DNA of 37,639 nt from a virus (taxonomy: Duplodnaviria > Heunggongvirae > Uroviricota > Caudoviricetes): IMG/VR virus record IMGVR_UViG_2585427795_000009, positions 1-37,639 of that record; one strand, given 5' to 3'. Below, in pieces: positions 21,696 through 37,639 of the stretch. How positions within the stretch are numbered: the first letter of the stretch is position 1; each line of letters begins with the position of its first letter. The position numbers and the translations under genes were made by a program. The notes beneath the pieces are model-generated. The model had not been told where the DNA came from. It worked only from the letters and a program-made list of their open reading frames with translations, and made no database searches.

Positions 21696-23468
21696 ATGAC
21701 CATCACCACAGACACCACTCTTTTACACGACCCGCGTCGTCAGGCGGCGCTGCTGTACTGGCAGGGGTTTTCCGTGCCGCAGATTGCCGCCATGTTGCAG
21801 ATGAAACGCCCGACGGTGCAGAGCTGGAAACAGCGCGACGGCTGGGACAGCGTTGCCCCCATCAGCCGTGTCGAAATGAGTCTGGAAGCGCGGCTGACCC
21901 AGCTCATCATCAAACCGCAGAAAACCGGCGGTGACTTCAAGGAAATTGACCTGCTCGGACGCCAGATTGAACGACTGGCACGGGTCAACCGTTACAGTCA
22001 GACCGGCAACGAGGCAGACCTTAATCCGAACGTCGCTAACCGCAACAAAGGCGGGCGTCGCAAACCGAAAAAGAATTTTTTCAGTGACGAGGCCATCGAA
22101 AAGCTGGAGCAGATTTTCTTTGAGCAGTCTTTCGAATATCAGTTGCACTGGTATCGCGCCGGGCTTGAGCACCGCATCCGCGATATCCTGAAATCCCGCC
22201 AGATTGGCGCGACGTTTTATTTTTCCCGCGAGGCGCTGCTGCGCGCCCTGAAAACCGGTCATAACCAGATTTTTCTGTCGGCCAGTAAAACGCAGGCGTA
22301 TGTGTTCCGCGAATACATCATCGCCTTTGCCCGGCTGGTTGACGTTGACCTGACCGGTGACCCGATTGTCCTGGGCAATAACGGCGCAAAACTGATTTTT
22401 CTCGGCACCAACTCCAACACCGCGCAGAGCCATAACGGCGACCTGTACGTCGATGAGATTTTCTGGATCCCGAATTTTCAGGTACTGCGTAAGGTGGCAT
22501 CAGGTATGGCCTCACAGAGTCACCTGCGCTCGACCTATTTCTCCACCCCGTCCACGCTGGCGCACGACGCCTACCCGTTCTGGTCGGGTGAACTGTTCAA
22601 CCGGGGACGCGCCAGCGCCGCCGAACGTGTGGAAATCGACGTCAGTCATAACGCCCTTGCCGGTGGTCTTCTCTGTGCGGACGGCCAGTGGCGGCAGATT
22701 GTCACCATTGAGGACGCGCTGAAAGGCGGCTGCACGCTGTTCGACATTGAACAGCTCAAACGCGAAAACAGCGCCGATGATTTTAAAAATCTGTTCATGT
22801 GTGAATTTGTTGACGACAAGGCGTCGGTGTTCCCGTTCGAGGAGCTGCAACGCTGCATGGTCGACACGCTGGAAGAATGGGAAGACTATGCCCCCTTTGC
22901 TGCCAATCCGTTCGGCTCCCGTCCGGTATGGATTGGTTACGACCCGTCACACCGTGGCGACAGCGCCGGATGCGTGGTGCTGGCACCGCCGGTGGTGGCC
23001 GGTGGCAAATTCAGAATACTTGAGCGTCATCAGTGGAAAGGCATGGACTTTGCCACTCAGGCTGAATCCATCCGCAAACTCACCGAAAAATACAACGTCG
23101 AATACATCGGAATTGATGCCACCGGCCTCGGTGTCGGCGTGTTCCAGCTCGTGCGCTCGTTCTATCCCGCCGCGCGCGACATCCGCTACACGCCGGAAAT
23201 GAAAACCGCAATGGTGCTCAAGGCCAAAGACGTTATCCGCCGTGGCTGTCTGGAATATGACGTCAGCGCCACCGACATCACCAGCTCGTTTATGGCTATC
23301 CGCAAGACCATGACCAGCAGCGGACGCAGCGCCACCTATGAGGCCAGCCGCAGCGAGGAAGCCAGCCACGCCGACCTCGCCTGGGCGACCATGCACGCCC
23401 TGTTAAATGAGCCACTCACCGCCGGTATCAGCACCCCGCTGACATCCACCATTCTGGAGTTTTACTGA
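21696..23468 (+). CDS. P: Terminase large (ATPase) subunit gpP
   Basis: 590 aa from ATG 21696 (MTITTDTTLLHDPRRQ...); divergent from O; stop overlaps Q start (TGATG). Confidence 0.9.
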   Translation: MTITTDTTLLHDPRRQAALLYWQGFSVPQIAAMLQMKRPTVQSWKQRDGWDSVAPISRVEMSLEARLTQLIIKPQKTGGDFKEIDLLGRQIERLARVNRYSQTGNEADLNPNVANRNKGGRRKPKKNFFSDEAIEKLEQIFFEQSFEYQLHWYRAGLEHRIRDILKSRQIGATFYFSREALLRALKTGHNQIFLSASKTQAYVFREYIIAFARLVDVDLTGDPIVLGNNGAKLIFLGTNSNTAQSHNGDLYVDEIFWIPNFQVLRKVASGMASQSHLRSTYFSTPSTLAHDAYPFWSGELFNRGRASAAERVEIDVSHNALAGGLLCADGQWRQIVTIEDALKGGCTLFDIEQLKRENSADDFKNLFMCEFVDDKASVFPFEELQRCMVDTLEEWEDYAPFAANPFGSRPVWIGYDPSHRGDSAGCVVLAPPVVAGGKFRILERHQWKGMDFATQAESIRKLTEKYNVEYIGIDATGLGVGVFQLVRSFYPAARDIRYTPEMKTAMVLKAKDVIRRGCLEYDVSATDITSSFMAIRKTMTSSGRSATYEASRSEEASHADLAWATMHALLNEPLTAGISTPLTSTILEFY

Positions 23469-24487
23469 TGAGCAAGAAAAAAGGGAAAACACCGCGACCT
23501 GCGGCAAAAACAATCACCGCCAGCGCCCCGAAAATGGAAGCATTCACCTTTGGCGAGCCGGTGCCGGTACTCGACCGCCGTGACATTCTGGATTACGTTG
23601 AGTGCATCAGTAACGGCAGATGGTATGAGCCACCGGTCAGCTTTACCGGTCTGGCAAAAAGCCTGCGTGCTGCCGTGCATCACAGCTCCCCGATTTACGT
23701 CAAACGCAATATTCTGGCCTCGACATTTATCCCGCATCCGTGGCTTTCCCAGCAGGATTTCAGCCGCTTTGTGCTGGATTTTCTGGTGTTCGGTAATGCG
23801 TTTCTGGAAAAGCGTTACAGCACCACCGGTAAGGTCATCAGACTGGAAACCTCACCGGCAAAATATCCCCGCCGTGGCGTGGAAGAGGATGTTTACTGGT
23901 GGGTGCCGTCCTTCCATGAGCCGACACCTTTCGCGCCCGGCTCCGTGTTTCACCTGCTGGAGCCGGATATTAATCAGGAGCTGTACGGTCTGCCGGAATA
24001 TCTCAGCGCCCTTAACTCTGCCTGGCTGAATGAATCAGCCACGCTGTTCCGCCGCAAGTATTACGAAAACGGCGCTCATGCCGGATACATCATGTATGTC
24101 ACCGATGCCGTGCAGGATCGCAACGATATCGAAATGCTTCGCGAAAACATGGTTAAGTCGAAAGGCCGCAACAACTTTAAAAACCTGTTTCTCTATGCCC
24201 CACAGGGGAAAGCCGACGGCATTAAAATTATCCCCCTCAGTGAAGTGGCGACGAAGGACGATTTTTTTAATATCAAAAAAGTCAGCGCCGCAGATCTCCT
24301 GGACGCACACCGCATCCCCTTTCAGTTGATGGGCGGTAAGCCGGAGAATGTCGGGTCACTAGGAGATATTGAGAAAGTGGCAAAGGTCTTTGTCCGCAAT
24401 GAACTCATTCCATTACAGGAGAGAATAAAGTCAATAAATGAATGGTTAGATATGGAAGTCATAAAATTCCTTGATTATAACTTATAA
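23468..24487 (+). CDS. Q: Portal protein gpQ
   Basis: 339 aa, synteny P-Q next to the cos region; last 25 or so codons are AT-rich. Confidence 0.88.
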   Translation: MSKKKGKTPRPAAKTITASAPKMEAFTFGEPVPVLDRRDILDYVECISNGRWYEPPVSFTGLAKSLRAAVHHSSPIYVKRNILASTFIPHPWLSQQDFSRFVLDFLVFGNAFLEKRYSTTGKVIRLETSPAKYPRRGVEEDVYWWVPSFHEPTPFAPGSVFHLLEPDINQELYGLPEYLSALNSAWLNESATLFRRKYYENGAHAGYIMYVTDAVQDRNDIEMLRENMVKSKGRNNFKNLFLYAPQGKADGIKIIPLSEVATKDDFFNIKKVSAADLLDAHRIPFQLMGGKPENVGSLGDIEKVAKVFVRNELIPLQERIKSINEWLDMEVIKFLDYNL

Positions 24488-24729
24488 GTAAATATATAAA
24501 GTTGGCGGAATGCAATCCCGCCAACTTAACTATATATGCGTATTTTCATGAAAGGAGATCACTCAATAACTTCCATCGAGATCGGGTAATAACATTTGAA
24601 CAGATCGCTGAATAACATCGATGGAGATCACTTTTGACTCATTTTGTTATTCAGTGATCTCCATCAATGTTATTGGAACTTCACAGGTGTGTTGATCTGT
24701 ATCTTTTGCCATTCCGGTAAAGGATACCT

Positions 24730-26271
24730 ATGCCAACAGTTCCAATTTCTATGAGAAAACTTAAAGAAATTCTTAGGCTTAAATACGGTGTTGGACTCAG
24801 CCATCGACAAATTGGTCGTAGTCTTGCAATCTCCCCTTCCGTTGTATCCAGATATGCTAATCGGGCGGCTCAACTTGGCATAAAGCAGTGGCCCTTACCT
24901 ACAGGATGGGATGATACAAAACTAAAACATGCGTTCCTTCAGACCCAGGTTAAGATGAAGAAGCACTCTCTGCCTGACTGGGCTACAGTACACCGGGAAC
25001 TGCGTAATAAATGCGTGACGCTGCAGCTACTCTGGGAAGAATACTGTGAGCGTAATCCAGGCGGTTTTTACAGCTATAACCATTACTGCCGGATGTACCG
25101 TGAATGGCTCAAAACCACTTCACCATCAATGCGTCAGGTACATAAAGCTGGCGAAAAACTTTTCGTTGATTACTGTGGACCTACCGTTGGCGTTACCGAC
25201 CCTGAGACCGGAGAAATAAGAACTGCTCAGGTCATCGTAGCTGTTCTCGGGGCATCAAGTTACACATGGGCAGAGGCCACCTGGTCTCAGCAGCTTGAAG
25301 ACTGGGTGATGAGTCATGTTCGCTGCTTCCAGTGGTTGGGTGGCGTTCCTGAACTTGTTGTTCCGGACAATCTGAAAAGCGCCACATCCAGGGCATGTAA
25401 GTATGATCCTGACGTTAACCCTACCTACCAGCAGATGCTTGAGCATTATAATGTCGCAGTTTTGCCTGCGCGGCCACGTAAACCGAAAGATAAAGCCAAA
25501 GCTGAAGTTGGCGTTCAGGTTGTTGAACGCTGGATCATGGCCCGAATCAGGCATGAGATCTTCTACAGCCTTGCATCGCTTAATCAGCGCATTCGGGAGT
25601 TGCTGGAAAGACTGAATAACAAAATAATGCAGAAGTTGGGTTATTCACGTGCAGAACTCTTCATCCAGCTTGATAAACCCGCACTGAAGCCTCTTCCTGA
25701 AGCCAGTTACAGTTACACCCTGGTGAAGAAAGTCAGAGTTCATGCCGATTACCACGTGGAAATCGACAAACATTACTACTCGGTTCCATGTTCGCTGTTA
25801 GGCCAGCAACTGGAAGCATGGATCTCCGGAGAACTGGTAAGACTCTTCAATCAGGGGCAGGAGGTTGCTGTGCACCCGCGCAAGCGTACTTATGGCTACA
25901 GTACCCGCAACGAGCACATGCCTGAAGCTCATCGACAGCATGCCACCTGGACGCCAGAGCGTCTTCTGGAATGGGCGGGGCACATAGGCAGTGAAACTCA
26001 TAGTTATGTGCTTCATATACTGAACTCTCGTCCACATCCGGAACAAAGCTATCGCTTCTGCCTTGGACTCCTGAACCTTCATAAAAAATACAGTAAAGCC
26101 AGACTTAATGCAGCATGTGCAAGAGCTCTGAAAACAAAGGTATGGCGTCTGTCAGGTATTAAATCGATCCTGGAAAAAGGTCTGGATAAACAACCTGTTC
26201 AGGATCCAAAACCAGATCTGTTATCCACGATGGAACACGAAAACGTACGCGGCAGTGAGTATTACCACTGA
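24730..26271 (+). CDS. istA: IS21-family transposase IstA
   Basis: 513 aa; N-terminal HTH (LSHRQIGRSLAISPSVVSRY), DDE-type core, SD AAAGGA upstream. Confidence 0.9.
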   Translation: MPTVPISMRKLKEILRLKYGVGLSHRQIGRSLAISPSVVSRYANRAAQLGIKQWPLPTGWDDTKLKHAFLQTQVKMKKHSLPDWATVHRELRNKCVTLQLLWEEYCERNPGGFYSYNHYCRMYREWLKTTSPSMRQVHKAGEKLFVDYCGPTVGVTDPETGEIRTAQVIVAVLGASSYTWAEATWSQQLEDWVMSHVRCFQWLGGVPELVVPDNLKSATSRACKYDPDVNPTYQQMLEHYNVAVLPARPRKPKDKAKAEVGVQVVERWIMARIRHEIFYSLASLNQRIRELLERLNNKIMQKLGYSRAELFIQLDKPALKPLPEASYSYTLVKKVRVHADYHVEIDKHYYSVPCSLLGQQLEAWISGELVRLFNQGQEVAVHPRKRTYGYSTRNEHMPEAHRQHATWTPERLLEWAGHIGSETHSYVLHILNSRPHPEQSYRFCLGLLNLHKKYSKARLNAACARALKTKVWRLSGIKSILEKGLDKQPVQDPKPDLLSTMEHENVRGSEYYH

Positions 26272-26282
26272 TACGGGATCCA

Positions 26283-27032
26283 ATGATGAATCATCTTTAC
26301 GAACAACTGACCGCACTTAAACTCACCGGCTTCCGTGATGCGCTTAAAAAGCAACTTGCTCAGCCGGGCACATACCAGGAGCTGGGCTTCGAAGAACGCC
26401 TGTCATTACTGACAGCAGAAGAACTAACCTGCCGTGAAAACAGGAAGGCAGAGCGTCTGATCAAACATGCACGGTTCAGACTTAATGCTGAGTTATCAAA
26501 GCTGGATTATCGTAACAATAGAGGGCTGGACAGGGCCCTCATCCGTTCACTCAGTCAGGGAAACTGGTTAACCCTGAAACAAAATATTTTACTGACCGGG
26601 GCCACCGGCAGCGGTAAAACGTTCCTGGCATGTGCACTTGGTCATAATGCCTGCCGACAGGGATACAAGGTCTACTATTATCGCCTTAAAGCGCTGATGG
26701 AACAGTGCTATCAGGGGCATGCTGATGGAAGATACAGCAAACTTTTGACCAGGCTGAATAATAGCGATCTGCTGCTTCTGGATGACTGGGGGCTGGAACC
26801 TCTCTCATCAGAACAGCGTAGCGACCTGCTGGAAATAGTGGATCTGATGTACCAACGAGGCTCAATCATCGTAGTGAGCCAGTTGCCGGTGGAAAACTGG
26901 TACAAAATGATCGGAGACTCCACACATGCGGATGCCATCCTAGATCGACTGGTTCATGGCAGTATCAAGATCGAACTTAAAGGAGAATCAATGCGGAAAA
27001 TACAATCTCCGTTGACCGAAGGAGATCAGTGA
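26283..27032 (+). CDS. istB: IS21-family ATP-binding helper IstB
   Basis: 249 aa; Walker A (LLTGATGSGKTF) and Walker B (LLLLDDWG); AAA+ IstB pattern. Confidence 0.9.
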   Translation: MMNHLYEQLTALKLTGFRDALKKQLAQPGTYQELGFEERLSLLTAEELTCRENRKAERLIKHARFRLNAELSKLDYRNNRGLDRALIRSLSQGNWLTLKQNILLTGATGSGKTFLACALGHNACRQGYKVYYYRLKALMEQCYQGHADGRYSKLLTRLNNSDLLLLDDWGLEPLSSEQRSDLLEIVDLMYQRGSIIVVSQLPVENWYKMIGDSTHADAILDRLVHGSIKIELKGESMRKIQSPLTEGDQ

Positions 27033-27118
27033 AGGTAATTTAAAAACGGTTCTGTGAAAGTGACACGAACCGATCTCCATCGATGTTACTCACCGATCTC
27101 CTTCACGGTAATACGCAA

Positions 27119-27826
27119 CTATATATACTTCCTTTTTACTCTACTTAATTCTATCACTGATGAGGAGTGACAAAATGACAAATTAATAGTATCGATATAA
27201 TCCAAAATTTGACTCTCAACCTCAATAAAAATATTTTTGGGCCCATTACTAATCGATATACCGATTTCATCCAAAACAGCCATCATTTTTCTCTGATGAG
27301 TTTTATATTTATAGTCTTTATTTTCCTCTGTAATATGTGCATTGGCTTCCTCAATAACACATTTGATTCTAGATATTATTTCTAGATAATCTCTCGAAAC
27401 AGATATATCACCGCCTTGCGCTTCAGGGAACATAACCCTATACCATCTAAAAAAATTAACTTTCTCTGGATAGATGCTACTTCTTTTAGTTAACTCAGCA
27501 CTTGCAAATTCTCTAAACATCGTCAGATGACTAGTGTAATTACTATTATTATTATTTTTAACTCCAGCGTTATATGTCATCAAAGCAATCATAACACCAA
27601 AAACGGTAACAAAAGTTGTTATAAGCCATCCAAACGCCTGAAAATACATTACTATACCAGATGTTTTTTCCGCAAAAAATTTTAAGCACTGGCTATCGAA
27701 GCATATATCACGCTCATATAGCTTTTCATTCTGAATAGTTTCAAAAAGAGAAATTAGCGAAAAAATCAAAAAAAGAGCTGACGACACACCGACAATATAT
27801 TTGAGAAGTCTAATATTTGCATTCAT
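27119..27826 (-). CDS. 2-TM membrane protein, candidate effector translationally coupled to the upstream reverse transcriptase
   Basis: 235 aa; two N-terminal TM helices (LLKYIVGVSSALFLIFSLISLF and GIVMYFQAFGWLITTFVTVFGVMIALM) then a roughly 150-aa soluble domain; its ATG overlaps the RT stop (ATGA); AT-rich. Confidence 0.7.
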   Translation of the reverse strand: MNANIRLLKYIVGVSSALFLIFSLISLFETIQNEKLYERDICFDSQCLKFFAEKTSGIVMYFQAFGWLITTFVTVFGVMIALMTYNAGVKNNNNSNYTSHLTMFREFASAELTKRSSIYPEKVNFFRWYRVMFPEAQGGDISVSRDYLEIISRIKCVIEEANAHITEENKDYKYKTHQRKMMAVLDEIGISISNGPKNIFIEVESQILDYIDTINLSFCHSSSVIELSRVKRKYI

Positions 27827-29049
27827 AATGGTTTTAAAGATGCCAATCTAGATTTAAAACACTCCAGTTTTTCTTTAAATGATTCAGAGCGAGTAAGAAT
27901 AATCATCTTATATCTCGTCAAATCATATTTTCTTTTATACCAATGTTTATTTTGATTACCTTTCGAATACGACAACTCTAAACTTTTTATAGCTGCATCA
28001 ATCACAGCAACATCTCTTTTAGATGGCATCGGTTTTATTGCCTGCAACTGTTTCTTGAATGATTCATATTTTTCATGCCCAACACGGCCAAGCTTATTCA
28101 CTCTCCCCATACATCTATTGAATTCTTTTCTGTATGCAACACTTGTTTTTGTGTTATTTTTTGCCGCCAGTAATTTCAAATTATGTATAGATGCCCTGAT
28201 TCTTTTGACTTCATCGGATGGTAGTCGAGGTGAGTCATAGTCAACTCTTAAACCATGTACTTTTATAGGTTCAGATGAACAGTGAAATATTTTAGTTTTG
28301 TGCTTATTTATCGGCAAGTCATGCTCAGAAAGCATCCTCTCTATATGGCTTTGCATTTGAGAAAAATCATAATTACTTATTTTAGATGACACGGTAATAT
28401 CATCTACCAAACGCGTATAAACAAGTCCTTTCCTCTGCGCACGTCTTACCACATCCCCTTCAACAGCGAATAAACACAAAGTTGCTATATAGCTTGATGT
28501 TAAGGCCCCCTGTACGACAAAATCATCCTTAGTACATATATCCACCAAGTATTCAAGAGCCTCATCCTTAATATGCAATATCTCCTCAAACACGCTCCTA
28601 ACCAGATCTCTATGGATATTATCGAAAAAATTACTTATATCCACCTTGAGAACTGTTTTTGCTCCACAATGAGCCTTTGCACATGAAACATAGTCACGTT
28701 TGACATTAGAATTTAAAACATCATTTTTACTGGGAACTGAACCAAACAAAAATGAAGGAAAAACAACCAATTCCTTAAAGATACGTTTATTAATTCTACT
28801 CTGTAATAATCTCATTTTAGGATGCAGGGAGTAGACAATCCGTTTGCTTCCGTCAATTTTGGGAATTTCTTTTAGAGTATATTTCTCATCTAATGGTAAT
28901 TCTGCAATAGCTTTAAGCTCTTCAACAGAAATCGATAAAGCCTTTGACAACTTTTCAAGTGTTGTGATAGGAGCATTGGATTTGCTGTATGGTTTAAATT
29001 TATCCATAAACATACCATTCAAATTCAAAGTTACGTACGGTCTTCCCAT
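27823..29049 (-). CDS. Retron-type reverse transcriptase (start uncertain: ATG at 29049, 29013 or 29007)
   Basis: RT motifs read directly: KRIVYSLHPKMRLLQSRI (motif 1-2), CAKAH-x5-VLKVDISNFFDNI (NAxxH-like plus motif A), QGALTSSYIATL (motif B), YTRLVDDITVS (motif C, YxDD), LPINKHKTKIF (motif E), IKVHGL in the position of the retron VTG motif; about 130-aa C-terminal extension. Confidence 0.82.
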   Translation of the reverse strand: MGRPYVTLNLNGMFMDKFKPYSKSNAPITTLEKLSKALSISVEELKAIAELPLDEKYTLKEIPKIDGSKRIVYSLHPKMRLLQSRINKRIFKELVVFPSFLFGSVPSKNDVLNSNVKRDYVSCAKAHCGAKTVLKVDISNFFDNIHRDLVRSVFEEILHIKDEALEYLVDICTKDDFVVQGALTSSYIATLCLFAVEGDVVRRAQRKGLVYTRLVDDITVSSKISNYDFSQMQSHIERMLSEHDLPINKHKTKIFHCSSEPIKVHGLRVDYDSPRLPSDEVKRIRASIHNLKLLAAKNNTKTSVAYRKEFNRCMGRVNKLGRVGHEKYESFKKQLQAIKPMPSKRDVAVIDAAIKSLELSYSKGNQNKHWYKRKYDLTRYKMIILTRSESFKEKLECFKSRLASLKPL

Positions 29050-29265
29050 ACTCAAGGGTGGAACAGCAGAGATGCTTACATCAACAATTGTCAGCAACAG
29101 CCTCTGCTATCTTTCGACCGTACGTAATGTCGTCGGCTACGGCACCATCGTAGTTGACGACGGTGGGGCCTCGCTGATAGGTCCATAGTGGACGCTTTTT
29201 TGTAAAAGCAAAAACTGACAATTTAATGTTGTTGACTGCCGCATACCAAGCGAATCGCTGGTGCG
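29050..29265 (-). ncRNA. Candidate structured leader or ncRNA upstream of the retron-type RT (possible msr-msd-like element)
   Basis: Non-coding leader with several perfect hairpins (GTCCA-TAG-TGGAC 29181..29193; GCTTTT-N4-AAAAGC 29194..29209; CACCATCG-N7-CGACGGTG 29143..29165) and two interleaved long-range inverted repeats (29031..29040 with 29118..29127, 10 bp; 29081..29094 with 29215..29236). Sequence-only inference. Confidence 0.3.
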
Positions 29266-29271
29266 CTAAGA

Positions 29272-29300
29272 ATAATGCAACAAAAAAATAAGAATTTCAA
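29272..29300 (-). promoter_or_regulatory. Putative sigma-70 promoter for the RT/2-TM operon
   Basis: On the minus strand: TTGAAA (-35), 17-nt spacer, CATTAT (-10); about 215-250 nt upstream of the RT start. Confidence 0.3.
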
Positions 29301-29338
29301 CCGGGTAACTGCAAGCCAGCGACATCGTTTAGCGCGCA

Positions 29339-29357
29339 GTGCTTTCCCCGCCTCGCC
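29339..29357. other. cos site (19-nt cohesive-end sequence of P2/P4 type)
   Basis: Minus-strand sequence GGCGAGGCGGGGAAAGCAC matches the P2 cohesive end as I recall it; flanked at 29357..29380 by hairpin CCGCCC-N8-GGGCGG plus TTTT. Confidence 0.75.
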
Positions 29358-29546
29358 CGCCCGCTTAATGGGGCGGTTTTAATGCACTTGCATTATGTCC
29401 CGCTCCTCAGTGCTGCGCTCCATCCTGATTACAAAAACCGTTATCAAAAACACATGCAAATAGACGCAGTCAAATGCACTACCGCCTCTCGCAATACCTT
29501 CAATTTCATGATAAAAAACATCATCCCTAACAAGAGCATTATCCTC

Positions 29547-31094
29547 ATGAAAAAAGTATATGAACTAACCAGTGAAGAAGCACTGTCATATTTTCTTCGC
29601 CATGACTCCTACACAACCTTAGAATTACCGGCTTATATTAATTTCACCACATTATTAAATGATATTAATTCATCTATCCATAACAAAAAAATTAAAATTG
29701 AACCAACCGCCAAGGAGCTGATGGGTAAAGATATCAATTATGAGGTGCTTGTCAGTAAAGATGGTCTATATAGCTGGCGTAGGATAACACTTATCAATCC
29801 CCTTTATTATGTCTACTTCTGTAGAAAAATCACAGCACCAACAACCTGGGAAATCATAACAGAAAAATTCAAATCTTTTGAATCAAACGACCTTTTTACA
29901 TGTTCAAGCATCCCCGTCAGAAAAGACAACTCGTCAAACATTGCTGCGTCTGTAATGAATTGGTGGGAAGATTTTGAACAAAAAAGCCTTGCCCTTGCTC
30001 TTGAATACGAATTCATGTTCAGCACTGACATCTCAAACTTCTACCCATCAATATATACTCATAGTTTTGAATGGGTATTCATATCAAAAGAAGATGCAAA
30101 GAAGAAAAAAAACAAAAATAACCCAGGGGGATTAATTGACAGCCACATTCAAATGATGATGAACAACCAGACAAATGGTATTCCACTCGGCAGCACATTG
30201 ATGGATACATTTGCTGAGCTTATCTTGGGTCAAATCGATATAGAATTAAGAAAAAAAACTAACGAACTCAAAATAATAAACTACAAGGTAGTACGCTACC
30301 GTGATGATTACCGGATCTTCTCTAATAGCAAAGATGATTTAGACATAATATCAAAATGTTTAGTCAATGTGTTGGGCGATTTTGGTTTAGATCTAAACTC
30401 AAAAAAAACTGAACTATATGAAGACATCATACTTCATTCGTTGAAACAAGCCAAAAAAGACTACATCAAAGAAAAAAGACATAAGTCACTCCAGAAAATG
30501 CTCTATTCAATATATTTATTTTCACTTAAACATCCAAACTCGAAAACAACCGTTAGATATCTAAATGATTTTCTTAGGGATTTATTTAAGCGAAAGTCAA
30601 TTAAAGATAACGGCCAACAGGTTGATGCTATGCTTGGTATTATTTCAAGCATCATGGCAAAAAACCCTACAACGTACCCAGTAGGAACGGCAATTTTCTC
30701 AAAACTCCTCAGTTTTCTTTATGGTGATGACACCCAAAAAAAATTAACAAAACTAGAACAGCTCCATAAAAAACTGGATAAACAACCCAATACAGAAATG
30801 CTTGACATATGGTTTCAGCGAACTCAAGCAAAAATAAACCTAGAGTGGAATAAATCTTATAAGTCAGCTCTATGCGTCCGTATAAATGATGAACTCACAA
30901 AAGAGAAAACATTTTCTGTAAATAATTTATGGAATATTGACTGGATCCAAGGAAAAGAAACGAGCCCCAATAAAGCCAAGATATTATCCTTGCTAAGAAA
31001 AACAAAAATCGTTGACACAGATAAATTTGATAAAATGGATGACAATATAACACCTGAAGAAGTTAATCTATTCTTTAAAGAGCACAGCAATTAA
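29547..31094 (+). CDS. AbiK/Abi-P2-like (UG/Abi class) reverse transcriptase in the old/tin position (start uncertain; longest ATG is at 29382)
   Basis: Motifs STDISNFYPSIYTHS (compare AbiK LDLSNFYHTLYTHS), GIPLGSTLMDTFAELIL (motif B), VVRYRDDYRIF (motif C), GLDLNSKKTEL (motif E), then a roughly 250-aa helical C-terminal domain; AT-rich; the 29382..29546 extension overlaps the cos-flanking region and is probably not coding. Confidence 0.8.
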   Translation: MKKVYELTSEEALSYFLRHDSYTTLELPAYINFTTLLNDINSSIHNKKIKIEPTAKELMGKDINYEVLVSKDGLYSWRRITLINPLYYVYFCRKITAPTTWEIITEKFKSFESNDLFTCSSIPVRKDNSSNIAASVMNWWEDFEQKSLALALEYEFMFSTDISNFYPSIYTHSFEWVFISKEDAKKKKNKNNPGGLIDSHIQMMMNNQTNGIPLGSTLMDTFAELILGQIDIELRKKTNELKIINYKVVRYRDDYRIFSNSKDDLDIISKCLVNVLGDFGLDLNSKKTELYEDIILHSLKQAKKDYIKEKRHKSLQKMLYSIYLFSLKHPNSKTTVRYLNDFLRDLFKRKSIKDNGQQVDAMLGIISSIMAKNPTTYPVGTAIFSKLLSFLYGDDTQKKLTKLEQLHKKLDKQPNTEMLDIWFQRTQAKINLEWNKSYKSALCVRINDELTKEKTFSVNNLWNIDWIQGKETSPNKAKILSLLRKTKIVDTDKFDKMDDNITPEEVNLFFKEHSN

Positions 31095-31100
31095 TATCCC

Positions 31101-31134
31101 AAAGCCATGTTAGTAACATAACATGGCTTTTTTT
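31101..31134. terminator. Bidirectional rho-independent terminator between the convergent Abi-like RT and A
   Basis: Perfect 12-bp stem (AAAGCCATGTTA / TAACATGGCTTT) with 6-nt loop, followed by TTTT on the plus strand. Confidence 0.6.
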
Positions 31135-31198
31135 AAATCACTCATTATCAGTTATCAAGAACGAACATAACATTCTATTCCGAGGAGTTAAATTATCA

Positions 31199-33484
31199 TT
31201 AGCTCCACTTAATATCCGTTATATCCTCCAGCCACTCCTCATCTACAAGATAGGTGAATTTTTTCCCGTCATAATTTACGGTTGCTCCACGTGCCAGCGC
31301 CTCAAGCTCCCATCGCTGCGGCCTGATACCGTTCTGAGCGAGGTCAACGCGGATACGGGTAATTTGCATTCGTTCTGACCGGGTCAGTCTGGCCGATGGC
31401 GCTATTTCATGTGGTTTTAACGGGCTTCCGTTTCTCTGCTGACGACCAGTCGTTCTCAGGCCGTGTTTTAATGCTCCCCTGAGCGCCTTCACGACCTCCG
31501 GGTCATTCCATTCGATAACACCGTCATCAACCAGATTAAGCACTGCTGCGGCGTGCTCAGAAGGTGTGGGAGCTGGTAACGAAGCATCACCACTGGTGAG
31601 CTTTCCACAGTTATTGACAGGACTCCGAGGCGCGGCGATGCCGCTTTTTAAAGTCAAAGGCTCAACGACCGGAACTTTCGGCACAATGCGCCAGTCCGTC
31701 GTTCTGGTGATATGAATATGACGCGCGCCGAGATGCGGCGCGTAAATGCCGACCACTCTCTCGACTTCTTCCTCGTATTCGTTGACGTCATCCGACGGAC
31801 TACGGGCAACCCTGACAATCTGACTATCGCGCGGGACATTTGCCCCGCCCTGCGCGCTGATATACAGCGCAAAATCACCACTGTCTGCGGCGGCGCGTGC
31901 AGCCTCGACGCGCTCGTCAAACTCATCAGCAATGCTGACGCCGCGCGGCAATTTGCGTAGTTCACGGTAAGCCCCCATTGTCGGCAGACCAACCGTTTTA
32001 AATTGCGGGATGCGCCACGTTGACGCCCATGCGGTAACAGCCGCGGCAGTGTCTTTCAGCGGTCTGCCGGTATCATTATCGAGCTGACCATCCAGTGCAT
32101 ATCCGTCGATATTTTTTGAGATGTACTTCGCGATATACCCCGCAGCACCGCCCCGGTTAAGGTGTTTCGCCTGAAAACGGTTTCGCGCGGCTCCTCTTTC
32201 GTCGCCATCCTCTTTGAGCGCGTAGCGACGCATGATTTCAATAATCTGGTTACGCTGGCGTGGATTACAAAAAAGCATCATATGCCAGTGCGGCGTTCCG
32301 TCGTGGTGTGGCTCGACGACACGCAAACCGTAGACCTGTAAATCATTATCCTTGAATGCCGTGCGCATCAGGCTCCAGATGCGGCAGAGATAACGCTGCG
32401 CATCCTTTGGATTAAATGCCTCATCGTTCCAGCCGTGATTAAGCTGAACGGTTTTACTTTCGCCTTTTCTGACCTGACGAGTCGGGTGATACTTTGACGG
32501 CGCAGTCAGCGTGATAAACATCCCCACATCACCCTCTGCGGCGGCGTAACGCTCAATACCGGCAATGGTGTTCATCAGCTCCATCCGGCGAATTTCAGGA
32601 TTAGAAATACTGCCCATCACCTTACTGATAAGGTCGATGCGCTCGCCGGTTTCCCTGTTTTCAAGGTCACACGATTTAAGAAATTCCAGATTTGCCTGGC
32701 GGCGCGCACGCACATCACGAATGGCGTGTTTACTGGCATAAGGAGAACGGTCTTTATTGACCTCCCCGACAGCTATCAGTAACGCTTCATGCCAGCGCAT
32801 ACGCTGGCCTTTAAGCTGATGAGTCCACCACTCATCGTTAAACAGACGGGCAATGGCAGAATATGCCTGCCTCGTGGTTATCTGTCCTTTACGGTATTTT
32901 TTCCAGTAGAGCGGGGAAATATTGAAAGCTCGTGCAGCGCCAGCAACATGACCATACAGGTGAGCCTGAGCCTCATCCGTAAACAGTGATTCTTTTTCGC
33001 CATGCGCATCCACCCAGGCATCGCTGAGTTCCTCATACATCATGAAAAGCTGCGATGAGATACGGGCAGCAAACTTTTTCAGCTCCTTGTCATTCATTCC
33101 CGGCAGGCGCGCATAGTGGTCACGCTCTGCCAGAAACAGCAACGACGCGTCGGTGTTCATTTCATGGCGCTGATTCACACGCTCAATGCGCGGCCATAAA
33201 CGACGCTGAAAAGTGGATGTGAGGAAATAAAACCCGTGTACCGGGCTTTTATTGCGCCGGATGTAGTCATAGCGTGAAGTAAACAGCGAGCGCAAAAAGT
33301 AAGGCAGGCGGTTAATCGTGGATAAAACACCTTGCACCTGACGCATCTCGTCACGTGTAAGGGGTCTTTCGCGCCCGACGGCCTCGCGTGGCGCGTTCCA
33401 TGCATAAGCACCGGTAAACGTCTCACCGGTGCCTGCGGCAAATGCTGACGGAGGGACAAAATGCACGGAGGCTTTAACGGCCAT
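31199..33484 (-). CDS. A: Replication initiation protein gpA (rolling-circle nickase)
   Basis: 761 aa from ATG 33484 (MAVKASVHFVPP...); the ORF track start at 33526 is a TTG extension; size and synteny match P2 A. Confidence 0.9.
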   Translation of the reverse strand: MAVKASVHFVPPSAFAAGTGETFTGAYAWNAPREAVGRERPLTRDEMRQVQGVLSTINRLPYFLRSLFTSRYDYIRRNKSPVHGFYFLTSTFQRRLWPRIERVNQRHEMNTDASLLFLAERDHYARLPGMNDKELKKFAARISSQLFMMYEELSDAWVDAHGEKESLFTDEAQAHLYGHVAGAARAFNISPLYWKKYRKGQITTRQAYSAIARLFNDEWWTHQLKGQRMRWHEALLIAVGEVNKDRSPYASKHAIRDVRARRQANLEFLKSCDLENRETGERIDLISKVMGSISNPEIRRMELMNTIAGIERYAAAEGDVGMFITLTAPSKYHPTRQVRKGESKTVQLNHGWNDEAFNPKDAQRYLCRIWSLMRTAFKDNDLQVYGLRVVEPHHDGTPHWHMMLFCNPRQRNQIIEIMRRYALKEDGDERGAARNRFQAKHLNRGGAAGYIAKYISKNIDGYALDGQLDNDTGRPLKDTAAAVTAWASTWRIPQFKTVGLPTMGAYRELRKLPRGVSIADEFDERVEAARAAADSGDFALYISAQGGANVPRDSQIVRVARSPSDDVNEYEEEVERVVGIYAPHLGARHIHITRTTDWRIVPKVPVVEPLTLKSGIAAPRSPVNNCGKLTSGDASLPAPTPSEHAAAVLNLVDDGVIEWNDPEVVKALRGALKHGLRTTGRQQRNGSPLKPHEIAPSARLTRSERMQITRIRVDLAQNGIRPQRWELEALARGATVNYDGKKFTYLVDEEWLEDITDIKWS

Positions 33485-33749
33485 ATGAGCCAAAAGCCTC
33501 TGAACAACGCTTGCTGAGTTGCTCAACCTGCGCGTTTAAATCAGCAAAAGACTTTGCGCTTCCGGTCAGAATATCGTGATGCATCAGGCCGGAAACGAGC
33601 TGGCTTAATTTCGGGTAATAACCAACCACCGCCAGCCACTCCTGACCGGCGTTTTTACCGCTTTCCGCTCTCTTTTTCTCGTGGAGAATAAACTGAAAGC
33701 TGTCACTGGTAACGACATAACGTTCGCCAATTTCGATACGAATACTCAT
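33474..33749 (-). CDS. P2 orf83-position hypothetical protein
   Basis: 91 aa, synteny between B and A. Confidence 0.65.
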   Translation of the reverse strand: MSIRIEIGERYVVTSDSFQFILHEKKRAESGKNAGQEWLAVVGYYPKLSQLVSGLMHHDILTGSAKSFADLNAQVEQLSKRCSEAFGSYGR

Positions 33750-33970
33750 GCCATTCTCCGGTAATGCTTGTTTTTTGCTTCAAAGACTGACTGGCAGGAA
33801 ACACAACGCGTGGCTGACGGATAAGCCGCACGACGGGCAGCAGGTATTGGCGCATCACACTCTTCGCAAACCAGCGCAGAAGTACCGCAATGTTTTACCC
33901 TTGCCGCGTTAATCTGGCGCTCCAGTAATTCAGCCTGTTGTTCCTGAATAAAATCCACGTTGTCCGGCAT
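33746..33970 (-). CDS. P2 orf82-position DksA/TraR-type C4 zinc-finger protein
   Basis: 74 aa with CGTSALVCEEC...RCVSCQ four-cysteine zinc finger. Confidence 0.7.
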   Translation of the reverse strand: MPDNVDFIQEQQAELLERQINAARVKHCGTSALVCEECDAPIPAARRAAYPSATRCVSCQSVFEAKNKHYRRMA

Positions 33971-34272
33971 TACCAGCTCCTTTTATCGTTCAGTTTCTTA
34001 AATTCATCAGCGCAATAGCTGGCGATTTCTGTCGTTAATTTTGTCAGTTCATCCACGGAGGAAATTTGCTTGTGAAATACAGCGCGTTTAACAAGTAAAT
34101 TGACCACATCAGACAGGAGGTTTAATTCGTTCTGATAAATCGCGATAACAGACTCAGTTATTTCGCGTTTTTCTTTATCAATACCAAGTTGAATAAGAGA
34201 CAAATCGCCATTTTTCATAACGGCGATTTTTAAGGCGTTATTCAGTAATACAATTGAACGAGAACAGGACAT
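33970..34272 (-). CDS. P2 orf81-position hypothetical protein
   Basis: 100 aa from ATG 34272; the ORF track start is TTG one codon upstream; stop/start overlap with the next gene. Confidence 0.6.
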   Translation of the reverse strand: MSCSRSIVLLNNALKIAVMKNGDLSLIQLGIDKEKREITESVIAIYQNELNLLSDVVNLLVKRAVFHKQISSVDELTKLTTEIASYCADEFKKLNDKRSW

Positions 34273-34496
34273 CAAAGCACCTCCCCGCGAGACAATCCGA
34301 TATTGTGAAATTTTTCCGACTCCTGACTGAGCAGCTCGACTATCTCCACGCGGGATAACTCCGTCTTTGTGATGTGGCGAATCATGGCATCAAGATGAGA
34401 CGAAAAGCGCGTTGCTGCATCGGCCTGTGCTTCGGTTCTGGCCTGTTGCAGCAGTAATGCGTATTTACCGCACTGATTTTCAGAAACTGTATGCAT
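34272..34496 (-). CDS. P2 orf80-position hypothetical protein
   Basis: 74 aa, synteny. Confidence 0.6.
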
Positions 34497-34559
34497 GACT
34501 TTCTCCAGGCAAAAAGAAGCCCCGCACGATTAAGTGCGTTAAAAACTCTGGTTAATTAT

Positions 34560-35066
34560 TTAATGCAGATATTGCTCTGGTTTTACCGACGTCAGAATTG
34601 TCGGTGCATACTCAAACAGGCTGAATAATTCACGTAATGCACGGAATAAAGCATCACGCCAGTAACATGATTCTTCATTAATTCGCCAGTATGGCTGGTT
34701 GAATTCTTTTTCAGTCAATCCGGCATGCATAAATAAAGTACGACGCTGACTGACTGTTAAAAAACTAATATATGCATACTCACTTGCGCCAACCTGACGG
34801 CGTTTTGAGAATGCCCCACGCAATTCATCAATTGCACAAACCAGCCGTTCACGTTCGACGTCGTTCATTTCTTCAAAACGCATCGTTGCGTGACGTTGTT
34901 TTAACTGCGCATGAAAGCAAACTGTTAGCCGTTCGCGCTCCATCATCTGATTATAATAATCACATGTATCCTGCCAGCGAGGAACGGCAAGATGCTTACC
35001 AATTATCCGGCGCATAGCTGCTGGCTGTTTTTCAACGAGATTGAGCGTCATCACTGTCATTTCCAT
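34560..35066 (-). CDS. B: Replication protein gpB (helicase loader)
   Basis: 168 aa, synteny cox-orf78-B. Confidence 0.8.
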   Translation of the reverse strand: MEMTVMTLNLVEKQPAAMRRIIGKHLAVPRWQDTCDYYNQMMERERLTVCFHAQLKQRHATMRFEEMNDVERERLVCAIDELRGAFSKRRQVGASEYAYISFLTVSQRRTLFMHAGLTEKEFNQPYWRINEESCYWRDALFRALRELFSLFEYAPTILTSVKPEQYLH

Positions 35067-35227
35067 ACCCTCCGGCTTTTCAGAAAGGTCAGAGCCTTTT
35101 TTAACGGACTCTGTTTTTTGGTGCGGATAATGATTCCCTTACGCCCCTTACCGTGGGTGATGGTGAAGTCAATCGCCCTGGGGCTTTCGTTACGCAGTAA
35201 CTGAGCAATACAACGAGGCTCATTCAT
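35057..35227 (-). CDS. P2 orf78-position small protein
   Basis: 56 aa from ATG 35227; the ORF track version starts at an upstream GTG. Confidence 0.5.
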   Translation of the reverse strand: MNEPRCIAQLLRNESPRAIDFTITHGKGRKGIIIRTKKQSPLKKALTFLKSRRVWK

Positions 35228-35237
35228 ACGGTTCTCC

Positions 35238-35513
35238 TTAACGTGGTTCACCGAGACCTAACCACATCAACCAGCCGTCACGAATCTCTTTAGGGCGGCT
35301 TTCATAAGCCAGTTTTAGTCCGTTATTCCATGCCGGAAGGTATACCCAATATTCACCTGCACGACCTGAAGCTGATTGTGGATCGGTCATATCAATTACA
35401 GGCAGCTTTCCTTTATCGATCATCCGACGAACCGCTCCTGTCGATTTTCCTATTAGTTTTGCGAACTCCTGATAAGGAATCGCATCAGTCATGAGTGTTA
35501 CTTGCTTGCTCAT
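35238..35513 (-). CDS. cox: Cox excisionase / early repressor
   Basis: 91 aa, MSKQVTLMTDAIPYQEFAKLIGKSTGAVRRMIDKGKLPV HTH; divergent from C. Confidence 0.88.
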   Translation of the reverse strand: MSKQVTLMTDAIPYQEFAKLIGKSTGAVRRMIDKGKLPVIDMTDPQSASGRAGEYWVYLPAWNNGLKLAYESRPKEIRDGWLMWLGLGEPR

Positions 35514-35627
35514 GTCGTCCTCTAGCCCTCATGAATTGCGTTTAATGTCTTATAATGCCTTTTAGTGCCCACATCCAAGCACTAAACAATCTACATCTAA
35601 ACTAAATACTATTGAGATCTAAACACC
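35514..35627. promoter_or_regulatory. Immunity switch region with divergent promoters (Pe for cox, Pc for C) and candidate operator repeats
   Basis: Minus strand: TTGGAT, 17-nt spacer, TTATAA upstream of cox; direct repeats ATCTAAAC at 35595..35602 and 35616..35623 upstream of C. Confidence 0.4.
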
Positions 35628-35927
35628 ATGTCAAACACGATAAGCGAGAAGATAGTCTTAATGCGAAAATCAGAGTATTTGAGCAGACAACAACTTGCTG
35701 ATTTAACAGGGGTTCCGTATGGCACGCTGAGTTACTATGAAAGTGGTCGTTCAACACCTCCAACAGATGTCATGATGAACATCCTGCAGACCCCACAATT
35801 CACCAAATACACTTTATGGTTCATGACCAATCAGATCGCTCCTGAGTCCGGGCAAATTGCGCCCGCTCTCGCACACTTTGGGCAAAACGAAACAACGTCG
35901 CCCCACTCCGGTCAAAAGACTGGTTAA
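35628..35927 (+). CDS. C: Immunity repressor C
   Basis: 99 aa, MSNTISEKIVLMRKSEYLSRQQLADLTGVPYGTLSYYESG HTH; position next to int. Confidence 0.9.
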   Translation: MSNTISEKIVLMRKSEYLSRQQLADLTGVPYGTLSYYESGRSTPPTDVMMNILQTPQFTKYTLWFMTNQIAPESGQIAPALAHFGQNETTSPHSGQKTG

Positions 35928-36042
35928 CAATTCATCGTGAATATATTCATCACAAGTGCCTACTATTGGTGGCTAAATTTCAGCCACCACGAAAAAAGCG
36001 ATTAGTAGTCGCAAAAAAACACACCACTCGGAGGGTTTTCTG

Positions 36043-37056
36043 ATGGCAATCAAAAAACTCGATGATGGTCGATATGAAGTGGACATCCGCCCTACTGGAC
36101 GTAATGGAAAACGCATCCGTAGGAAGTTTGATAAGAAAAGCGAAGCTGTCGCTTTCGAGAAATACACGTTGTACAACCACCACAATAAAGAATGGCTATC
36201 AAAACCAACAGACAAGCGACGTCTGTCGGAGCTGACACAGATCTGGTGGGATTTAAAGGGTAAACACGAAGAGCATGGGAAATCTAATCTTGGAAAAATT
36301 GAAATCTTCACAAAAATAACGAATGACCCATGCGCATTTCAAATTACGAAATCGCTTATCAGCCAGTACTGCGCCACCCGAAGAAGTCAGGGTATTAAAC
36401 CTTCGAGTATCAATCGTGATTTAACATGTATTAGCGGCATGTTTACAGCCCTGATTGAAGCGGAGTTATTCTTTGGTGAGCACCCTATCAGAGGGACAAA
36501 AAGGCTTAAGGAGGAAAAACCAGACACAGGCTATCTCACGCAGGAAGAAATTGCCTTACTGCTTGCTGCTCTTGACGGCGACAACAAAAAGATTGCGATT
36601 CTTTGCCTGAGTACTGGAGCACGTTGGGGAGAAGCAGCTCGTTTGAAAGCAGAAAATATCATCCATAACCGCGTCACGTTTGTTAAAACGAAAACAAACA
36701 AACCACGCACCGTCCCGATCTCAGAGGCTGTTGCCAAAATGATCGCGGATAACAAACGAGGTTTTTTATTCCCTGATGCTGATTACCCTCGCTTCAGACG
36801 AACAATGAAAGCAATAAAACCGGATTTGCCAATGGGGCAAGCCACACATGCACTAAGGCACAGCTTTGCCACTCATTTCATGATTAATGGAGGAAGTATT
36901 ATCACACTACAACGGATACTAGGTCACACGCGGATTGAGCAAACTATGGTTTACGCTCATTTTGCGCCAGAGTACCTTCAGGACGCCATTTCTCTTAATC
37001 CGCTAAGAGGTGGTACTGAGGCCGAGAGTGTCCACATAGTGTCCACAGTAGAGTAA
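36043..37056 (+). CDS. int: Tyrosine integrase
   Basis: 337 aa; C-terminal catalytic signature HALRHSFATHFMINGGSIITLQRILGHTRIEQTMVYAHF (R..H-x-x-R...Y); adjacent to the att core. Confidence 0.9.
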   Translation: MAIKKLDDGRYEVDIRPTGRNGKRIRRKFDKKSEAVAFEKYTLYNHHNKEWLSKPTDKRRLSELTQIWWDLKGKHEEHGKSNLGKIEIFTKITNDPCAFQITKSLISQYCATRRSQGIKPSSINRDLTCISGMFTALIEAELFFGEHPIRGTKRLKEEKPDTGYLTQEEIALLLAALDGDNKKIAILCLSTGARWGEAARLKAENIIHNRVTFVKTKTNKPRTVPISEAVAKMIADNKRGFLFPDADYPRFRRTMKAIKPDLPMGQATHALRHSFATHFMINGGSIITLQRILGHTRIEQTMVYAHFAPEYLQDAISLNPLRGGTEAESVHIVSTVE

Positions 37057-37135
37057 CGTTTAAGGGCTTTCAGTGGTAATTTATGCCGCTCAAACCCGCA
37101 TTGTACCGTTGAAAGCCCCTACTGGTGACACTCTA

Positions 37136-37162
37136 AATCTCCCTTACACGGGCTTATTTTTT
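37136..37162. repeat. Prophage att core, right copy (int-proximal)
   Basis: Identical 27-mer to 1507..1533. Confidence 0.85.
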
Positions 37163-37321
37163 TATGCATAAGCCCTATCTCTGGTAACCGTCTTCCATTG
37201 ACCACATCGATAGAATCCTCCTTCATAGCACGATGCCTTTCACTTATCGGCATCGTGCTCCCACAGGTTCCGGCTACGCACAGCCAGAACGCGCATATTT
37301 GACGCTTACCAAAAAATATTC

Positions 37322-37639
37322 TCACTCTCCACATTTGAATGTCAGACGAGCGACACCATGTAATCCTACACCTTCTGTCTTCAGCTCAACTATTTGCATT
37401 TTTTTGCCCTGAGTAACACAGAAATGAGTTGCATCATTTTTTACTATATTTTCTGCACCAGATATTCTACCCCTGGCTAAAGAAGCTTCGGCTTCGGTGT
37501 AGTATTGGTTATCGAGTTTACGCTGAATATTACTTTTATATGCAAGACCAAATTTACCGATACTTGTCTCATCATTATGCACAGCACAACCAGACATAAT
37601 AAAAATACTAATTAATGATATAGCAGCTATCTTTTTCAT
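37322..37639 (-). CDS. yegR: Host lipoprotein YegR
   Basis: 105 aa with lipoprotein signal MKKIAAISLISIFIMSGC; flanks the prophage opposite yegQ/cyaR, as at the E. coli K-12 ogrK remnant locus. Confidence 0.75.
   Translation of the reverse strand: MKKIAAISLISIFIMSGCAVHNDETSIGKFGLAYKSNIQRKLDNQYYTEAEASLARGRISGAENIVKNDATHFCVTQGKKMQIVELKTEGVGLHGVARLTFKCGE

Follow-up and report, generated by a model that had tools for sequence, protein, structure and literature searches.

The stretch of DNA analysed here, IMG/VR record IMGVR_UViG_2585427795_000009 (37,639 nucleotides, referred to below as the window), contains a P2-like (Peduovirus) Escherichia coli prophage in which two genes for reverse transcriptase (RT)-like enzymes, namely that of a type IV retron, Ec48, and that of the polymerase Abi-P2, are located on opposite sides of the packaging site cos. 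With a probability of about 0.88, this island is the cos-proximal hotspot of the prophage and carries two autonomous, already characterised abortive-infection systems, each in a separate slot flanking cos. We infer that both systems are expressed and active in the strain without interacting with each other, and that their pairing reflects physical linkage. The identity, completeness and intactness of both systems, the position of cos, the breakpoints of the cargo and its independent assortment were established by the analysis reported here; for the mechanisms we rely on published work. The two systems are considered to be independent because the modules occur apart from each other, because Ec48-family retrons of six other genera have no Abi-P2 nearby, because Ec48 defends from a plasmid and Abi-P2 polymerises DNA alone in published work, and because neither enzyme reaches the cut-offs for the known two-RT system DRT3.

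An earlier note on this sequence had proposed a retron-type RT with an effector and an Abi-type RT, the genes being divergent with the packaging site between them, as well as an IS21 copy at the island edge. These assignments held throughout: the retron was recognised by the PADLOC models RT_IV and 2TM_IV and by NCBIfam NF038235, the Abi-type RT proved to be Abi-P2 (PADLOC AbiP2 and ~99% identity to PDB entry 7R08), the P2 cos 19-mer was located at 29339-29357, and the insertion sequence (IS) was identified as ISEc12 (24537-27117), just outside 27119-31198.

A type IV retron and Abi-P2 on either side of cos

The features that make up the two modules and the packaging site are as follows (positions in the window).

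27119-27826, minus strand: effector of retron Ec48 (type IV), 235 aa; PADLOC 2TM_IV, 4.1e-85; NCBIfam NF038235
27823-29049, minus strand: RT of retron Ec48, 408 aa; PADLOC RT_IV, 7.6e-177; Pfam RVT_1, 1.7e-31
29072-29262, minus strand: non-coding RNA (ncRNA) of the retron (msr-msd), from the fold, a seven-genus alignment and covariation
29272-29300, minus strand: candidate sigma-70 promoter of the retron operon, TTGAAA-17-CATTAT, from a consensus scan only
29331-29393, no strand: constant cos core, 63 bp, with 92-98% identity to P2/P2-like phages over only that stretch
29339-29357, minus strand: 19-nt cohesive-end sequence of cos, the P2 19-mer GGCGAGGCGGGGAAAGCAC, by sequence match
29547-31094, plus strand: Abi-P2 (P2-EC30 type), 515 aa; PADLOC AbiP2, 2.1e-161, model positions 4-487 of 489
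31101-31130, plus strand: terminator-like hairpin with a 12-bp stem followed by a T-run, located after Abi-P2 and facing the end of gene A

The retron effector scores 226.7 bits on the NCBIfam equivalog NF038235 (retron_Ec48_2TM, ‘retron Ec48 family effector membrane protein’; cut-off 65), contains two N-terminal hydrophobic (transmembrane) helices at residues 5-32 and 58-86, and is identical both to RefSeq WP_000993280 (‘retron Ec48 family effector’) and to protein 2 of the ‘Type IV retron’ in Table S5B of Rousset et al.; a PDB search with this two-transmembrane (2TM) effector found no relative. Its gene is placed directly downstream of the RT gene, with which it overlaps by 4 bp. The RT_IV score of the retron RT was far above those for the other retron types in PADLOC. 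The listed open reading frame (ORF) of this RT encompasses 424 aa (27823-29097, minus strand) with a TTG start at 29097; the true start is probably M17 at 29049, giving a protein of 408 aa, because homologues from six other genera (Klebsiella, Enterobacter, Serratia, Photorhabdus, Buttiauxella and Xenorhabdus) align from there and because the catalytic DD, part of the LVDD motif at residues 214-217, then falls at residues 216/217. The features by which a type IV retron was judged, being an RT with xxDD, a 2TM effector downstream and a structured ncRNA upstream of the RT, were all present.

Rfam returned no retron msr family, neither for the whole window at the gathering threshold nor for 28900-29600 at E<=10, and the ncRNA was therefore delimited by alignment and covariation. 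The 260 nt upstream of the RT were aligned between E. coli and the same six genera, resulting in a mean identity of 79% across the seven genera, and RNAalifold predicted a long-range closing stem (the a1/a2 duplex) that encloses internal stem-loops: a1 (~29244-29213) pairs with a2 (~29095-29072), with the msr stem-loops and the msd template in between. Compensatory changes were observed in 12 of 55 pairs, eight of which lie within the a1/a2 helices, and 98.4% of cells were paired, as compared to 28-55% when the partners were slid, the long-range a1/a2 helices being 100% paired. The observed covariation score was not reached by any of 500 shuffles, and the minimum free energy fold of the region gave z = -3.3. 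An invariant G at 29215 is a candidate for the branching G, though it is paired in the consensus. A 12-nt inverted repeat, TTACGTACGGTC/GACCGTACGTAA (~29124 and ~29042), was dropped as a candidate for a1/a2, the covarying helix being the one given above. Upstream of the ncRNA, the sequence TTGAAA-17-CATTAT might, as a weak inference from the consensus, drive the retron operon; across the region, promoter-like sites were no more numerous than expected from shuffled sequence.

The module resembles Ec48/Retron-Eco6 (Millman et al. 2020; Mestre et al. 2020) in possessing an ncRNA, an RT and a 2TM effector in the same order. The published mutants of Ec48 affect D216/D217 of the RT and residues 3-85 of the transmembrane region, and the DD motif and the helices of the island are found at matching positions. 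As judged by its parts, residue positions and effector entries, the system itself shows no difference from Ec48, the only difference being ISEc12 beyond the effector stop codon; the retron thus looks complete and functional. Ec48 defends strain MG1655 when supplied from a plasmid that bears the Ec48 system, requires both the RT and the 2TM effector for this defence, and acts by RecB-dependent abortive infection via the effector (bioRxiv 10.1101/2020.06.21.156273). If the retron of the window acts in this manner, its operon would yield the ncRNA, the msd part of which would be copied by the RT into multicopy single-stranded DNA (msDNA), and the resulting RT-msDNA complex would silence the 2TM effector and guard RecBCD. 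Inhibition of RecBCD by a phage (through lambda Gam or T7 gp5.9) would then release the effector, leading to membrane damage and cell death before phage maturation.

On the other side of cos, the 515-aa Abi-P2, a UG/Abi class 1 RT, is ~99% identical to PDB entry 7R08 over 510 residues (5 substitutions), and its gene shows 99.2% nucleotide identity to P2-EC30 sequence AM157365. A longer reading of its ORF comprises 570 aa from 29382; the family match and the RefSeq annotation both begin at 29547. The full-length family match covers the palm/fingers and the C-terminal helical domain, motif A (TDISNFY) is located at residue 160 and YRDD at 251, and the priming tyrosine is residue 30 (Tyr61 in the 546-aa numbering) within LELPAYINF. 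Based on these features, Abi-P2 looks intact and functional. Abi-P2 of prophage P2-EC30 was reportedly the subject of work by Odegrip and colleagues in 2006. The protein of the window shares with Abi-P2 of P2-EC30 (structure 7R08, Figiel et al. 2022) its position between gene A and cos, and differs from it by few conservative substitutions and by the annotated start (570, 546 or 515 aa); in the window the retron is located across cos from Abi-P2, and the deposited ECOR30 record (P2-EC30) covers 1.9 kb only. Purified Abi-P2 alone polymerises DNA in vitro in a protein-primed (Tyr61) and template-independent manner, and forms a trimer, potentially a hexamer, which makes single-stranded DNA (ssDNA) (PMC9508834). 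According to reviews, Abi-P2 in lysogens excludes phage T5 (PMC8632793, PMC11077055). The enzyme in the A-side slot of the window would therefore be expected to act as a trimeric RT-like polymerase that is primed by its own tyrosine and produces untemplated ssDNA, with exclusion of T5 in lysogens as the outcome.

The retron and Abi-P2 modules are transcribed divergently with cos between them. Window position 29339 corresponds to the first base of several linear genomes deposited for P2-like phages, and the 63-bp cos core is the sole part of the hotspot that is conserved with P2 itself. Breakpoints were mapped against the prophages TUM10828 and Combat13F7, which carry Abi-P2 only. On the side of the portal gene Q, homology to these prophages ends at 24462, i.e. 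25 bp before the stop codon of Q, and returns at 29331, leaving 8 bp to the cos 19-mer. The retron cassette, which spans 24463-29330 with the IS excluded, has therefore taken the place of the final codons of Q together with the ~200-bp spacer that separates Q from cos, the portal protein being 339 aa in the window versus 344 aa in Abi-P2-only prophages without the retron. On the side of gene A, homology to prophages with other A-side cargo ends at 29393-29395. The breakpoints on both sides thus define two cargo slots which are split by the constant 63-bp cos core. Since the retron cassette ends 8 bp from the cos 19-mer, the Q-side sequence needed for cos function must be very short. In the packaged linear genome the retron is found at one end and Abi-P2 at the opposite end.

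Assortment of the two modules and comparison with DRT3

The distribution of the two modules was determined in 5426 complete E. coli genomes, with the following counts.

Retron cassette (all copies at least 99.7% identical): 57 genomes
EC30-type Abi-P2: 11 genomes
Retron cassette and EC30-type Abi-P2: 3 genomes
pro147-type Abi-P2 (75% protein identity to that of the window): 64 genomes
Retron cassette and pro147-type Abi-P2: 42 genomes

An Abi-P2 allele is located across cos in 45 of the 57 retron carriers (79%), and the A-side slot of the remaining 12 contains an AAA ATPase, a DUF7380 protein or an ORF-poor segment. Approximately 30 genomes carry an Abi-P2 allele without the retron, and two of four close retron copies in IMG/VR are without Abi-P2. 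At this hotspot, the retron occurs with Abi-P2 or with any of the three alternatives, and Abi-P2 is also found alone. Pairing of Ec48 with an EC30-type allele is rare (3/5426) and represents simply an allelic variant of an arrangement that is already catalogued. Escherichia phage pro147 (NC_028896) and the 42 E. coli genomes have the portal gene, Ec48 effector, RT, ncRNA, cos, Abi-P2 and gene A as in the window; the retron cassette of pro147 is 99.8% identical to that of the window, from which pro147 differs by an Abi-P2 protein that is only 75% identical, an additional 72-aa ORF before gene A, and the lack of an IS. The likeliest explanation for the frequent pairing in E. coli is linkage within one successful pro147-like phage lineage, reshuffled at cos.

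Outside E. coli, tblastn detected no Abi-P2 homologue within 7-10 kb of Ec48-family retrons (40-76% identity) in the six other genera. An effector-alignment profile search of genome contigs gave two loci, and genomic contexts were instead taken from the contigs encoding the homologues. The Enterobacter retron occupies the same A-Q slot, and that of Serratia the second P2 hotspot, between the tail fibre and sheath genes; the Photorhabdus retron is positioned directly after a Hachiman HamA/helicase pair and is flanked by transposases, and the Klebsiella retron is part of a different, non-P2 prophage. Among the E. coli carriers of Ec48, strains G3, ESBLEC_HM50, AHB22 and AH21I008 have a stretch of ~0.9 kb separating cos from gene A that is free of annotated genes and contains small ORFs only, and their prophages also contain a gene with a PAPS-reductase domain fused into the replication operon. 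The island copy in IMGVR_UViG_648276644_000011 carries a frameshift-split Abi-P2 and an effector match that starts only from residue 29, and would thus constitute a decaying version of the retron/Abi-P2 pair.

Considering that DRT3 (Drt3a UG3, Drt3b UG8 and an ncRNA) also combines two RT-family polymerases in a short locus, one being RNA-templated and the other Abi-like and untemplated, both enzymes of the island were scored against the DRT3 families. The retron RT, whose best PADLOC family is RT_IV, reaches 39.8 bits on NF041747 (Drt3a, UG3; cut-off 200) and Abi-P2 111.5 bits on NF041748 (Drt3b, UG8; cut-off 350); in PADLOC, Abi-P2 matches Drt3b at 1.6e-38 versus 2e-161 for AbiP2. The ACACAC template was looked for in the retron ncRNA and was not found. 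The two RTs of DRT3 form one operon and are co-inherited with the ACACAC ncRNA as a unit, whereas the genes of the window belong to different RT clades, are divergent and split by cos, and often occur separately. A further likeness is that DRT3 and Ec48 both respond to loss of RecBCD, since DRT3 stands under RecBCD guard and is set off by Gam. The family scores and the independent assortment ruled out a single system of the DRT3 type, and intact motifs and 100% identity to an annotated genome ruled out decay of either RT; consequently, neither of the two outcomes on which the earlier note would have abandoned independence, namely an RT in decay or membership of both genes in a described two-RT system, was encountered. 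The note had judged the two RTs to be independent and a DRT3-like system to be unlikely from gene orientation and the intervening cos, a view that is now supported beyond gene orientation by the assortment, by published work on Ec48 and on Abi-P2 and by the Drt3a/Drt3b scores. The two systems may, as the note further suggested, provide layered or complementary protection.

The old and tin genes of P2 belong to the same cos-proximal cargo region, flanked by A and Q, and encode proteins that are unrelated to those of the island. They are confined to the A side of cos, whereas the retron of the window is on the Q side. Rousset et al. also place old at the gpA-gpQ locus (PMC9122126). Cargo responding to loss of RecBCD appears to occur more than once in P2-like phages.

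The prophage, its hotspot borders and the ISEc12 insertion

The prophage of the window has a close relative in E. coli strain UPEC-245U/190328, with 99.99% identity across window positions 4528-24537 and 99.81% across 27117-37639. All P2 genes are annotated in the latter prophage, ranging from those of the tail through terminase, portal, gene A, cox and repressor to an integrase beside yegR. The single large difference is a 2581-bp insertion at 24537-27117 in the window, and none of the 4081 bases of the island (27118-31198) differ between the two prophages (100% identity). The island has a GC content of 0.32-0.41 as compared to ~0.55 in the phage backbone. The prophage is integrated at the 3’ end of the small RNA gene cyaR (Rfam CyaR at 1445-1530, 100.7 bits); the 27-bp core of the attachment site (att), AATCTCCCTTACACGGGCTTATTTTTT, is located at 1507-1533 and again at 37136-37162, and cyaR is therefore regenerated.

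The borders of the hotspot and the elements adjoining the retron operon are the following.

23468-24487, plus strand: portal gene Q, 339 aa, left border of the hotspot; ORF, ‘phage portal protein’ in RefSeq for a near-identical prophage
24501-24525, no strand: GC-rich hairpin GTTGGCGG-N8-CCGCCAAC between Q and the retron operon
24537-27117, plus strand: ISEc12 (IS21 family), 2581 bp, 100% identical to copies annotated ‘IS21-like element ISEc12’
24730-26271 and 26283-27032, plus strand: istA (513 aa) and istB (249 aa), ORFs in ISEc12
31199-33484, minus strand: replication gene A, right border of the hotspot; ORF, ‘replication endonuclease’ in RefSeq for the related IS-free prophage

Variable cargo beside cos, flanking genes Q and A, and a full P2-like gene set were all found, as is characteristic of the gpA-gpQ hotspot. 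This cos-proximal hotspot was defined by Rousset et al. 2022, who reported many loci with more than one system (PMC9122126).

ISEc12 possesses the transposase IstA, the helper ATPase IstB, terminal inverted repeats (TGCGTATT/AATACGCA) and a short target duplication of 8 bp (ACTATATA at 24529-24536 and 27118-27125), in full accordance with the IS21 family. It is inserted one base from the stop codon of the retron effector; this codon sits inside the target duplication, and the ORF is therefore unchanged by the insertion. In the related IS-free prophage the GC-rich hairpin listed above is found ~20 bp beyond the effector stop codon, and it is probably a bidirectional terminator of the retron operon, from which ISEc12 now separates it. 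Full-length ISEc12 copies are present in 1366 of the 5426 genomes, yet the site is devoid of ISEc12 in all three complete genomes (0/3) that carry the island with retron and EC30-type Abi-P2, which argues for a recent insertion that would be specific to this strain. The element enlarges the prophage from ~33.0 to 35.6 kb.

Outside the hotspot, a low-GC ORF of 197 aa with one N-terminal hydrophobic segment is present at 8567-9160 (minus strand), between the tail sheath and tail-fibre assembly genes, a site that corresponds to the second P2 cargo slot (Z/fun). On the strand opposite to the surrounding baseplate/tail-completion genes, a 261-aa ORF at 14645-15430 (plus strand; GC content of 0.36) specifies several hydrophobic segments and would represent another uncharacterised moron. 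Neither the 197-aa nor the 261-aa ORF had a match in Pfam, PADLOC or NCBIfam. The tail-fibre gene (9913-12135) contains ~132-bp tandem repeats at 11128-11595 with the units TARKGLVQLSSATNS.SETLAATPKAVK.AYDLANGKYTAQDAT, which show up as offset self-matches in a BLAST comparison with the related prophage.

Alternative explanations and meaning of the locus

Several points weigh against two autonomous and active systems. The pairing of 45 of the 57 retron carriers with Abi-P2 compares with ~1-2 expected under naive random assortment among ~2100-2900 P2-like cos loci; the particular combination of alleles and the IS-bearing strain are known from sequence alone; one review regards the need of other locus elements for Abi-P2 defence as unclear; the retron promoter is a tentative assignment made by consensus match; and ISEc12 could affect how the retron transcript is processed at its 3’ end or how stable it is. 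The first and third of these points are also the ones from which a functionally coupled two-RT system would draw support, in which the DNA products of Ec48 (RNA-templated) and Abi-P2 (untemplated and protein-primed), or their RecBCD-dependent control, would interact. Two Abi-P2 alleles that are only 75% identical pair with the same retron, and the review states that the autonomy of Abi-P2 is not fully established. DRT3 furthermore provides a precedent in which a templated RT of class 2 cooperates with an untemplated one of class 1, under a RecBCD guard and with Gam as trigger, as for Ec48. However, either module is found alone in E. coli, half of the four close IMG/VR copies lack Abi-P2, and the homologues in six other genera are never accompanied by it within the distance searched; Ec48 defends from a plasmid and Abi-P2 makes DNA alone in vitro; the genes are divergent, have separate regulatory regions and end up at opposite ends of the packaged linear genome; and the identity of at least 99.6% shown by the retron cassette wherever it occurs fits recent spread of one lineage. 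Functional coupling is thus considered very improbable. The related proposal that Ec48 and Abi-P2 are co-adapted, with the pairing selected for an interaction (through RecBCD-guard logic, or through annealing of or competition between ssDNA products) and with the cos core acting as the recombination joint, is likewise regarded as very improbable.

Impairment of at least one of the systems in this particular strain is also very unlikely. ISEc12 might remove the terminator or read into the retron operon, as its position one base from the effector stop codon splits the operon from the hairpin at 24501-24525, or the enlarged prophage might be unpackageable; the decaying island copy in IMGVR_UViG_648276644_000011 also lends this explanation some weight. 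Against it, the ORFs, catalytic residues, ncRNA and cos are intact, the island equals the IS-free UPEC-245U copy base for base, and the effector stop codon is regenerated by the target duplication. P2-like phages of ~35.5 kb, such as phiCTX, are known, which counts against a failure in packaging. Two autonomous systems in separate slots, linked physically, therefore remain the preferred explanation of the locus.

The arrangement as such is already known from the tables of Rousset et al. 2022 and from phage pro147, and the locus is real but ordinary. Table S5A of Rousset et al. lists ‘RVT_1 + RVT_1 + hypothetical’ loci with the exact effector WP_000993280, and in Table S5B ‘RT-Abi-P2’ and ‘Type IV retron’ are entered as two distinct curated systems (PMC9122126). 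Our literature search found no paper that discusses the Ec48/Abi-P2 association as such, and the strength of this association in E. coli is a modest loose end: if it were to exceed linkage, DRT3 would be joined by a second natural example of two antiviral RTs, one templated and one untemplated, that cooperate. In itself the locus matters little, both systems having published mechanisms or structures and the hotspot and the two-RT arrangement being public. Its value is as an example of two cargo slots in a P2-like phage that flank a 63-bp cos core and recombine independently, with a retron placed just 8 bp from the cos cleavage sequence.

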